In this document: positions 48,770 through 51,882 of the stretch, in pieces
How positions within the stretch are numbered: position 1 is the stretch's first letter
How the letters are laid out: each line of letters opens with the position of its first letter
Assembly (NCBI RefSeq): GCF_003334305.1
Contig: NZ_QOWS01000013.1
Strand: one strand, 5' to 3'
Origin: Escherichia coli
Lineage (GTDB): Bacteria; Pseudomonadota; Gammaproteobacteria; Enterobacterales; Enterobacteriaceae
DNA: 64,000 nucleotides
The notes under the pieces: generated by a model
Database searches by the model: none
Told to the model about the DNA's origin: nothing
Seen by the model: the letters and a program-made list of their open reading frames with translations, nothing else
Translations under genes and position numbers: made by a program

Positions 48770-49648
48770 TTAGGCTTGCAGCTCCAGTCCTGCCAGCCGC
48801 CGCCAGTAGCCGTTACAGTCGCTGTTTGCCGTCAACAATAGTGGCGCAGCGCCATTTTCATTAGCGCGGAAGGCGTCGAGCATCGCGAAAGTGTCAGTAC
48901 CCTGCGGTGACAGGCGGACCACATCAACCAGCCCCTGCATGGATGCCAGCTCGTTACCGAGGTTGTAAACGTAGCCGCTCATGGTCTGAATGCCATTGAG
49001 TACAAACACTTGTTGGTTTTCCTGCGACAGCACGTTGCGCCCGTTCGGATACTTAATGCAGCAGGTTTCACACTCATCTTTCGGGCGGTCTTCCGAACGC
49101 GCGGTAAAGCAGCGGGCGGAGTAGGCCAGCGGTAGATGACCGTAGCTCAGGACTTCCACTTCAAACTGGTTGCGAATGCCCAGCTCATCGCACTGATTAA
49201 GCAGATTCACCAGCCAGTCGCGGGAAAGCTCCACCGGCATACACCAGCGCATCATGCCCTGTTTGAGCAATATTTTCAGCGTCACCGCGTTGTAGCAGTT
49301 CAGCGCGTGCCCGGCGACGAACGGCAGTTTGCGTTCAGCGCACATATTCACCACGCCGAGATCGCTGGCTTCAATCAGAAACTCACCGTTCTCAACATAG
49401 CGTTTCAGTTCGCCCAGTTCAGAGGATGCCTGCACCAGCGCCAGCGTGGAGAGCACAATCTGCTTGCCACTTCCGGCGAGCGATTTTGCCATCTCCAGCC
49501 AGTCGCCAACTTTGGTTGCCCGGCGCTTGCTGCATACCGCTTCACCAAGATAAATCACGTCGGCGCTGCTGGTGGCGGCCTGCTGATAAAAATCTTCCAG
49601 CGTCTCTTTTGGCCAGTACCACAGCACTGGCCCTAAGGAATATTTCAT
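48770..49648 (-). CDS. ubiV: U32-family protein UbiV (YhbV), O2-independent ubiquinone biosynthesis, 292 aa
   Basis: Start at the internal Met MKYSLGPVLWYW; peptidase U32-family Cys motifs. Confidence 0.88.
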   Translation of the reverse strand: MKYSLGPVLWYWPKETLEDFYQQAATSSADVIYLGEAVCSKRRATKVGDWLEMAKSLAGSGKQIVLSTLALVQASSELGELKRYVENGEFLIEASDLGVVNMCAERKLPFVAGHALNCYNAVTLKILLKQGMMRWCMPVELSRDWLVNLLNQCDELGIRNQFEVEVLSYGHLPLAYSARCFTARSEDRPKDECETCCIKYPNGRNVLSQENQQVFVLNGIQTMSGYVYNLGNELASMQGLVDVVRLSPQGTDTFAMLDAFRANENGAAPLLLTANSDCNGYWRRLAGLELQA

Positions 49649-49656
49649 TGCTCTTC

Positions 49657-50652
49657 TCACTGCCATTTACGGTGATACGCGCCAAGGGTGGTCTGCGTGC
49701 CTTCGGACATCGACCCGAGCGTCTCCATCCACGCGCTTTGCGGTATGAAGTTTTGCGGATCGGCCTTACAACGGTCGATAGCCTGACGCCAGACTTTCGC
49801 CACCTGGCTGACATACGCCGGGCTACGCTGGCGGCCTTCAATTTTCACCGAAGCAATATTCGCCGCCATTAACTCCGGCAGCAGTTCCAGGGTATTGAGA
49901 CTGGTTGGTTCTTCCAGCGCGTGATAGCGCTCGCCGTCCACCAGATAACGCCCTTTACATAGCGTCGGATAACCTGCGTTTTCGCCGTCCTGATAACGGT
50001 CGATCAGCACTTCGTTCAGGCGGGATTCCAGCCCCTGCGGCGTTTGTTGCCAGCGCACGAAACGGGCCGGAGAACACGCGCCTACGGTGTTGGGCGACTC
50101 ACCCGTCAGATACGACGACAGATAGCAACGACCTTCCGACATAATGCACAGGCTGCCGAAAGCAAAGACTTCCAGTGGTACAGGTGTGACCCGTGCCAGT
50201 TGTTTCACCTGATGAATCGACAACACGCGCGGCAGCACCACGCGGGCAACGTCAAAATGGCGATGATAAAAGTTAATCGCCTCTTCATTGGTCGCCGAAG
50301 CCTGCACCGATACGTGGCGCTCAATATGCGGATAACGCTCGGCGGCGTATTCCAGCATGGCGAGGTCGGCGAGGATCAGCGCGTCGGCACCCAGCTGCGC
50401 CGCCATATCCACGGCGCGCTGCCAACGGGCGTAACCGTCCGGATGCGCAAAAGTGTTAATCGCGATGTGAAGTTTGCGGCGATGTTGATGGACAAAACTC
50501 ACCGCTTCCTGCAATTTTTTCTCGGTAAAGTTAAGGCCGGCGAAGTGACGGGCATTGGTATCATCTTTTAGCCCGATATAAACAGCATCTGCGCCGTTTT
50601 CGATGGCCGCCTTAAGCGCCGGGAGATTTCCGGCAGGGCAGAGCAGCTCCAT
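49657..50652 (-). CDS. ubiU: U32-family protein UbiU (YhbU), O2-independent ubiquinone biosynthesis, 331 aa
   Basis: Start at the internal Met MELLCPAGNLPALKAAIENG. Confidence 0.88.
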   Translation of the reverse strand: MELLCPAGNLPALKAAIENGADAVYIGLKDDTNARHFAGLNFTEKKLQEAVSFVHQHRRKLHIAINTFAHPDGYARWQRAVDMAAQLGADALILADLAMLEYAAERYPHIERHVSVQASATNEEAINFYHRHFDVARVVLPRVLSIHQVKQLARVTPVPLEVFAFGSLCIMSEGRCYLSSYLTGESPNTVGACSPARFVRWQQTPQGLESRLNEVLIDRYQDGENAGYPTLCKGRYLVDGERYHALEEPTSLNTLELLPELMAANIASVKIEGRQRSPAYVSQVAKVWRQAIDRCKADPQNFIPQSAWMETLGSMSEGTQTTLGAYHRKWQ

Positions 50653-50860
50653 AATTTTTCCTGAAGGTTGCGCTATCAAAACGCAAAAATGTTAACGAAC
50701 TGGGATTTTAGTTAACCTTGCTGCGACAATTTTTGATTTAAGGCAGTTAAAGTTGTATTGGTGGTAGCAGCAATTTCATATGGAATTGTTGATTTATACC
50801 GCTATGTTATTTTTCTGATATGGCAAAATAGGATGATTGTTGAAACAGGGAGTAAAACTC

Positions 50861-51385
50861 GTGTTGGATAAACTGCGTTCCCGTATTGTGCATTTGGGGC
50901 CATCTCTGTTGAGTGTACCGGTAAAACTGACGCCATTTGCGCTAAAACGCCAGGTTCTTGAGCAGGTCTTAAGCTGGCAATTCCGTCAGGCGCTGGATGA
51001 TGGTGAGCTGGAGTTTCTTGAAGGCCGCTGGTTAAGTATTCATGTGCGTGATATTGACCTGCAATGGTTTACCTCGGTGGTGAATGGCAAACTGGTGGTC
51101 AGCCAGAACGCGCAAGCTGATGTGAGTTTTAGTGCCGACGCCAGCGATCTGCTGATGATTGCGGCGCGTAAACAAGATCCGGATACGCTCTTCTTCCAGC
51201 GTCGGCTGGTGATTGAAGGCGATACGGAGCTGGGGCTGTATGTGAAAAACCTGATGGACGCCATTGAACTGGAGCAAATGCCGAAAGCCTTACGCATGAT
51301 GCTGCTGCAACTGGCGGATTTTGTTGAGGCGGGAATGAAAACCGCGCCTGAAACCAAACAGACATCGGTAGGTGAACCATGCTAA
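50861..51385 (+). CDS. ubiT: SCP2-domain lipid-binding protein UbiT (YhbT), 174 aa, GTG start
   Basis: Translation (M)LDKLRSRIVHLGPSLLSVPVK from GTG at 50861; divergent from ubiUV. Confidence 0.82.
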   Translation: MLDKLRSRIVHLGPSLLSVPVKLTPFALKRQVLEQVLSWQFRQALDDGELEFLEGRWLSIHVRDIDLQWFTSVVNGKLVVSQNAQADVSFSADASDLLMIAARKQDPDTLFFQRRLVIEGDTELGLYVKNLMDAIELEQMPKALRMMLLQLADFVEAGMKTAPETKQTSVGEPC

Positions 51386-51882
51386 TTCGAGTAGAAATTC
51401 CCATTGATGCGCCGGGTATTGATGCCCTGCTACGTCGCTCATTCGAAAGTGATGCGGAAGCGAAGCTGGTTCACGATCTGCGTGAAGATGGCTTTCTGAC
51501 GCTGGGGCTGGTGGCGACAGATGACGAAGGTCAGGTCATTGGCTATGTGGCATTTAGTCCGGTTGATGTGCAGGGCGAAGACCTGCAATGGGTCGGCATG
51601 GCACCGTTGGCGGTTGATGAAAAATACCGTGGACAGGGGCTGGCACGCCAACTGGTCTATGAAGGACTCGATTCGCTTAATGAGTTCGGCTATGCCGCAG
51701 TGGTGACGCTGGGCGATCCGGCGCTGTACAGTCGTTTCGGCTTTGAACTGGCGGCGCATCACGATCTGCGTTGCCGCTGGCCGGGCACTGAAAGCGCCTT
51801 CCAGGTACATCGTTTAGCGGATGACGCGCTGAATGGCGTTACCGGCCTGGTTGAGTATCACGAGCATTTCAATCGCTTTTAA
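51379..51882 (+). CDS. yhbS: GNAT-family N-acetyltransferase YhbS, 167 aa
   Basis: Acetyl-CoA binding motif ([10 protein letters not shown]) in the translation. Confidence 0.9.

Follow-up and report, generated by a model that had tools for sequence, protein, structure and literature searches.

The ubiT gene (yhbT, b3157; NP_417626.1; UniProt P64599) of Escherichia coli K-12 MG1655 is located at 3300752–3301276 on the minus strand and consists of 525 nt (174 codons and a stop codon). UbiT is an SCP2-domain accessory factor of O2-independent ubiquinone synthesis; deletion of yhbT leads to the loss of anaerobic UQ8 in E. coli, and pK-yhbT restores it (PMC6747719). yhbT was cloned with the primer TATCGAATTCATGttggataaactgcgttcc, and the insert starts at the GTG codon (as ATG) without the 8 upstream codons (Pelosi et al. 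2019, PMC6747719). With the yhbT plasmid, anaerobic UQ8 in the yhbT deletion was 64.6 versus 2 pmol/mg, and that in the wild type was 114 pmol/mg (PMC6747719). This complementation shows that the 174-residue form is sufficient, and it is silent on whether this is the sole form made.

For ubiT, Arias-Cartin et al. 2023 (PMC10470549) drew on the dRNA-seq map of Thomason et al. 2015 to describe a distal promoter (ubiTp1) and a proximal one (ubiTp2). Between them is an Fnr site, F2 (TTGATTTATACCGC), situated 19 nt downstream of ubiTp1 and 33 nt upstream of the +1 of ubiTp2; mutation of F2 abolishes the anaerobic induction of UbiT-SPA (PMC10470549). yhbS, which is co-transcribed with ubiT, encodes the Hfq-binding acetyltransferase HqbA, and a promoter within ubiT itself has been proposed (PMC10710024).

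The ubiT locus was analysed here in a window of 64,000 nt (the whole stretch of DNA under study; all features are on the plus strand unless stated otherwise). The window is E. coli chromosome: of 5426 complete E. coli genomes, 5425 had a match to a 781-base query (50640–51420), with at least 99% identity in 5306. Its ubiT is the same gene as that of K-12, with the same start codon, 525-nt length, and neighbours, and no difference was found between the two.

Reading frame and annotation of ubiT

The ubiT coding sequence occupies 50861–51385 and comprises 174 codons and a TAA stop codon (51383–51385), as indicated by the open reading frame, the score of the protein against the UbiT profile, matches to SCP2 chains, and annotation. 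Its GTG initiation codon at 50861–50863 was assigned from the sequence, annotation, and conservation among orthologues. The product of this frame begins (M)LDKLRSRIVHLG..., and its N-terminus also reads (M)LDKLRSRIVHLGPSLL.... Upstream, the frame is limited by an in-frame TGA at 50834–50836, followed by TTG (50837), TTG (50840), AAA, CAG, GGA, GTA, AAA, CTC, GTG (50861), and TTG (50864). The two adjacent TTG codons (50837–50842) are thus the sole possible starts upstream of GTG. The original prediction, which placed the start at GTG, had named an ATG at 50837 as the rival start. The eight residues that a frame opened there, 24 nt upstream of GTG, would add (MLKQGVKL) were given correctly, but the codon at 50837–50839 is TTG and not ATG. 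Since the rival start is a TTG, weaker than the supposed ATG, the conclusion in favour of GTG is strengthened. The predicted N-terminus of the form starting at TTG 50837 is (f)MLKQGVKLVLDK..., and that of the form starting at TTG 50840 is MKQGVKLV....

The sole ATG nearby is located at 50833–50835 in a different frame from ubiT. It opens an out-of-frame ORF of 12 codons that ends with TAA at 50869–50871 and overlaps the start of ubiT. This ORF was considered as an upstream ORF and set aside: AGGA abuts the ATG without a spacer, the ATG is missing in other genera, and transcription from ubiTp2 starts downstream of it. It is probably meaningless.

The protein scored 153.6 bits against the NCBIfam UbiT equivalog model NF047962 (cut-off, 46.9), with residues 22–139 covering profile positions 2–120 of 120. 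Coverage of this profile was also tried as a test of the N-terminus and rejected, the 174- and 182-residue forms giving 153.6 and 153.4 bits, respectively, without discrimination; because the model is limited to residues 22–139, it does not help in choosing the start. Sequence matches in the PDB were to sterol carrier protein 2 chains (1c44_A, 2c0l_B, and 1qnd_A; E = 4e-5 to 2e-4), and precomputed PF02036 hits were found on the homologues. ubiU–ubiV, which are U32-family genes, are divergent upstream of ubiT in the window and in reference genomes, and a U32 gene is also divergent at the distant loci L083–L085.

In a PGAP-annotated E. coli genome, the ubiT CDS (WP_001295552.1) maps to 50861–51385 of the window, and 174 residues is the length of nearly all among the 120 closest database proteins. 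These records and the 525-nt CDS of MG1655 bear out the prediction that the 174-residue product has the known length of UbiT. The proposed start reproduces the existing reference annotation; thus, the GTG start of ubiT is the current reference annotation and is already known. A 182-residue "putative lipid carrier protein", which corresponds to the TTG 50837 model, is present in some GenBank records (one protein cluster, P0056; 114 member sequences). These records share that model with the longest-ORF rule, which takes the first start after a stop codon. The 182-residue models in some records are over-extensions, and neither conservation nor transcript structure supports them. The same rule gives a wrong start for each of the three genes here. 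For ubiU (minus strand, 49657–50679), the longest-ORF call starts at TTG and gives 340 residues, while the annotated protein has 331 residues from ATG 50652. For ubiV (minus strand, 48770–49666), the call gives 298 residues, while the annotated protein has 292 residues from 49648.

Conservation of the start codon and its upstream region

Orthologues were collected from 80 loci of other Enterobacteriaceae species (81–99% protein identity), and the counts below are over 81 sequences. The codon aligned with 50861 was GTG in 81 of the 81. Codon 2 varied among TTG, TTA, and CTG and is therefore not conserved as a start. The four GGAG columns upstream of GTG were 96–100% conserved across the 75 unique sequences. 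A stop codon was present within 33 nt upstream of GTG in 56 of the 81 sequences, and in 47, the frame read upstream from GTG reached a stop without passing any start. An in-frame start was found at −21 in only 20 sequences (Escherichia, Citrobacter, Salmonella, and Intestinirhabdus loci) and at −24 in only five (Escherichia). The MAFFT alignment revealed a 1-nt length difference at ca. −16 between the group of Escherichia, Citrobacter, Salmonella, and Intestinirhabdus and most other genera. Since this indel lies inside the putative 8-codon extension, the extension cannot be a conserved coding sequence.

Column entropies at codon positions 1, 2, and 3 downstream of the start were 0.41, 0.07, and 1.12 bits, respectively, with a three-base periodicity from +3 onward. 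The corresponding values in −24 to −1 were 0.62, 0.67, and 0.92 bits, showing no coding periodicity. Positions −14 to −1 form a solidly conserved block of Shine-Dalgarno (SD) sequence and spacer, and the stretch 5′ of −14 varies at all three positions. The alignment of orthologues thus agreed with the predicted start: GTG and GGAG are conserved, and the upstream extension is broken by stops or a 1-nt indel in most relatives.

Other potential start codons were seen in some orthologues. In four Citrobacter loci (L007, L008, L009, and L011), the in-frame codon at −21, TTG in E. coli, is ATG (ggactaATGaaacagggag). AGGA lies just 3 nt before this ATG, and a gene caller could choose it. At −6, two codons before GTG and 2 nt after the SD sequence (gggagtaATGctcGTG), an in-frame ATG occurs in L048, L065, L069, L077, and L082 and an in-frame TTG in L063 and L064. 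These codons, found in several genera, are a possible further source of inconsistent start calls.

More distant N-termini were obtained by searching the representatives of 50%-identity clusters, among which 112 relatives of UbiT were full-length-like. Their N-terminal offset from query residue 1 peaked at 0 to +2 (30/112) and was within 3 residues in 51 of the 112, and the nearest relatives begin MLDKLCSH, MLKRLQNL, and MLNKIRTRL; these N-termini are gene-caller calls and constitute weak evidence when taken alone. The DNA was read for three distant clusters (L083–L086; 65%, 52%, and 49% identity), and the homologous start was GTG in each. In-frame stops were located at −15, −6, and −15 in these clusters with no start in between; therefore, there is no upstream alternative there.

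Ribosome-binding site, transcript structure, and alternative starts

The SD sequence GGGAG is located at 50848–50852, 8 nt before GTG; its duplex with the 3′ end of 16S rRNA has a predicted energy of −7.7 kcal/mol, and it is conserved among the orthologues. This spacing lies within the 5–10 nt of SD-led initiation and agrees with the predicted start. The best core SD 9-mer before the TTG codons contains AGGA (50830–50833; −4.0 kcal/mol), with spacings of 3 and 6 nt. When extended pairing was considered, the 20-nt window before TTG 50840 reached −7.0 kcal/mol, so SD energetics alone leave a weak use of TTG 50840 possible. This codon was rejected because of conservation and transcript structure, not SD energy. 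The leader and start region (50836–50905) folds weakly (−10.9 kcal/mol; z = +1.39 versus shuffles), which suits an initiation region. ubiT thus shares with canonical SD-led initiation at non-ATG codons a GGAG core 8 nt upstream, an unstructured region, and a conserved start and SD sequence.

The F2 sequence (PMC10470549) was located in the window at 50789–50802. Since F2 ends at 50802, 33 nt upstream of +1, the ubiTp2 transcription start is placed at approximately 50835–50837, on the upstream TTG. This position was deduced from the wording of that paper and the end of F2, with an uncertainty of ±1–2 nt, and an Fnr site centred at −41.5 would put the start at 50837. The conserved block TGGCAAAAT (50821–50829), 6–8 nt upstream of the deduced start, is a putative extended −10 element of the Fnr-dependent ubiTp2. 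The left half of F2 and this block are conserved across Enterobacteriaceae loci. A simple scan for the sigma-70 consensus detected no plus-strand promoter in 50640–50900. No sigma-70 match is expected for an activator-dependent promoter without a −35 match, and the scan was therefore not counted against ubiTp2. The distal, aerobically active ubiTp1 starts at ca. 50770, and its mRNA includes both TTG codons and the AGGA 6 nt before TTG 50840. The Fnr sites F1 (ubiUV, 50733–50746) and F2 (ubiT) both lie within the 208-bp divergent intergenic region.

The possibility that the main product is a 182- or 181-residue UbiT starting at TTG 50837 or 50840 was weighed against these data. The frame is open from 50837, the 182-residue protein appears in some older GenBank records (P0056), and AGGA precedes TTG 50840 at 6 nt. 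However, among the three bacterial start codons, TTG is used least often, and the upstream starts are kept in few orthologues (20/81 at −21 and 5/81 at −24), the extension being interrupted elsewhere by stops or the 1-nt indel. Furthermore, −24 to −1 has no coding periodicity, the Fnr-dependent mRNA begins approximately at the TTG itself, and both RefSeq and the MG1655 record use GTG. Leaderless initiation is known to require a 5′-terminal AUG. A main product starting at either TTG is very improbable. Somewhat less improbable, though still unlikely, is dual initiation, in which GTG 50861 gives the main product and a minor extended form is made on the ubiTp1 mRNA from TTG 50840 (Escherichia) or from the −21 ATG (some Citrobacter). 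The inclusion of the TTG codons in the ubiTp1 transcript, the extended anti-SD pairing before 50840, and the ATG of the four Citrobacter loci are in line with such a form. Nevertheless, the stronger SD sequence, which serves GTG, sits inside the extension, and no experimental sign of such a form was found. The extension is unconserved beyond the loci of Escherichia, Citrobacter, Salmonella, and Intestinirhabdus; a minor extended form is therefore unlikely to matter functionally. Initiation at codon 2 (TTG 50864), which would give 173 residues, would use a permitted start codon 11 nt after the SD sequence. Yet this spacing exceeds the usual optimum, and many orthologues have CTG or TTA as codon 2 after an invariant GTG, so that we regard this start as practically negligible.

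Evidence at the protein level was sought in the supplements of TRAINSPOTTER (PMC13245402), TetRP (PMC4909307), and Giess 2017 (PMC5576327). yhbT, ubiT, or b3157 was not mentioned in these supplements, which contained neither an N-terminal peptide nor an initiation-profiling record for UbiT. A mention of yhbT in PMC7593589 was also considered as start evidence and discarded, since it concerns an internal deletion in Salmonella.

Annotation, the conserved GTG and SD sequence, coding periodicity, the transcript start, and the functional construct all agree with the start at GTG 50861–50863 that had been predicted. GTG 50861 is very likely the start of ubiT, giving a 174-residue UbiT by SD-led initiation, and we infer that it is used exclusively in the cell. 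In the proposed mechanism, the main anaerobic mRNA would begin at ca. 50835–50837 from the Fnr-activated ubiTp2 and carry a leader of only ca. 25 nt. The upstream TTG codons would then lie at the extreme 5′ end of this mRNA, without a ribosome-binding site, and the 24 nt before GTG would be non-coding 5′ UTR. The 30S subunit would pair with GGGAG and then initiate at GTG 50861 to produce the 174-residue SCP2-domain UbiT.

Invariant GTG and the ubiT–yhbS operon

yhbS (hqbA), the second gene of the operon (PMC10710024), is located at 51379–51882 according to the sequence and annotation. The 3′ end of ubiT shares 7 nt with the start of yhbS (ATGCTAA, 51379–51385), an arrangement that suggests translational coupling. 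In E. coli S56 (NZ_CP010242.1, 611722–613279), the match to 50640–51420 was split into two pieces and was 777 bp longer, and the annotation of the matched stretch includes an IS1 family transposase. This points to an IS1 element having inserted within or beside ubiT in that strain.

The start codon was GTG in all 85 sequences examined (the window, at 50861–50880, and L003–L086), down to 49% protein identity. It was never swapped for ATG, which is the sole oddity of ubiT with respect to canonical SD-led GTG initiation. GTG is kept though nearby synonymous sites are close to saturated, and the third positions of codons 2–7 are much less variable than those farther downstream. The low variation at early third positions and the invariant GTG may result from selection for a weak start or from selection acting on the initiation region. 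A deliberately weak GTG, or an overlapping RNA-level element at −14 to +20, might set the output of UbiT relative to that of the co-transcribed hqbA (yhbS), or a minor extended proteoform might be made from ubiTp1; we consider this idea speculative and rather unlikely.

Tagging, expression constructs, and structural work on UbiT require its correct N-terminus. The reference annotation of UbiT (174 residues, GTG start) is trustworthy, and the finding carries little weight beyond annotation hygiene.
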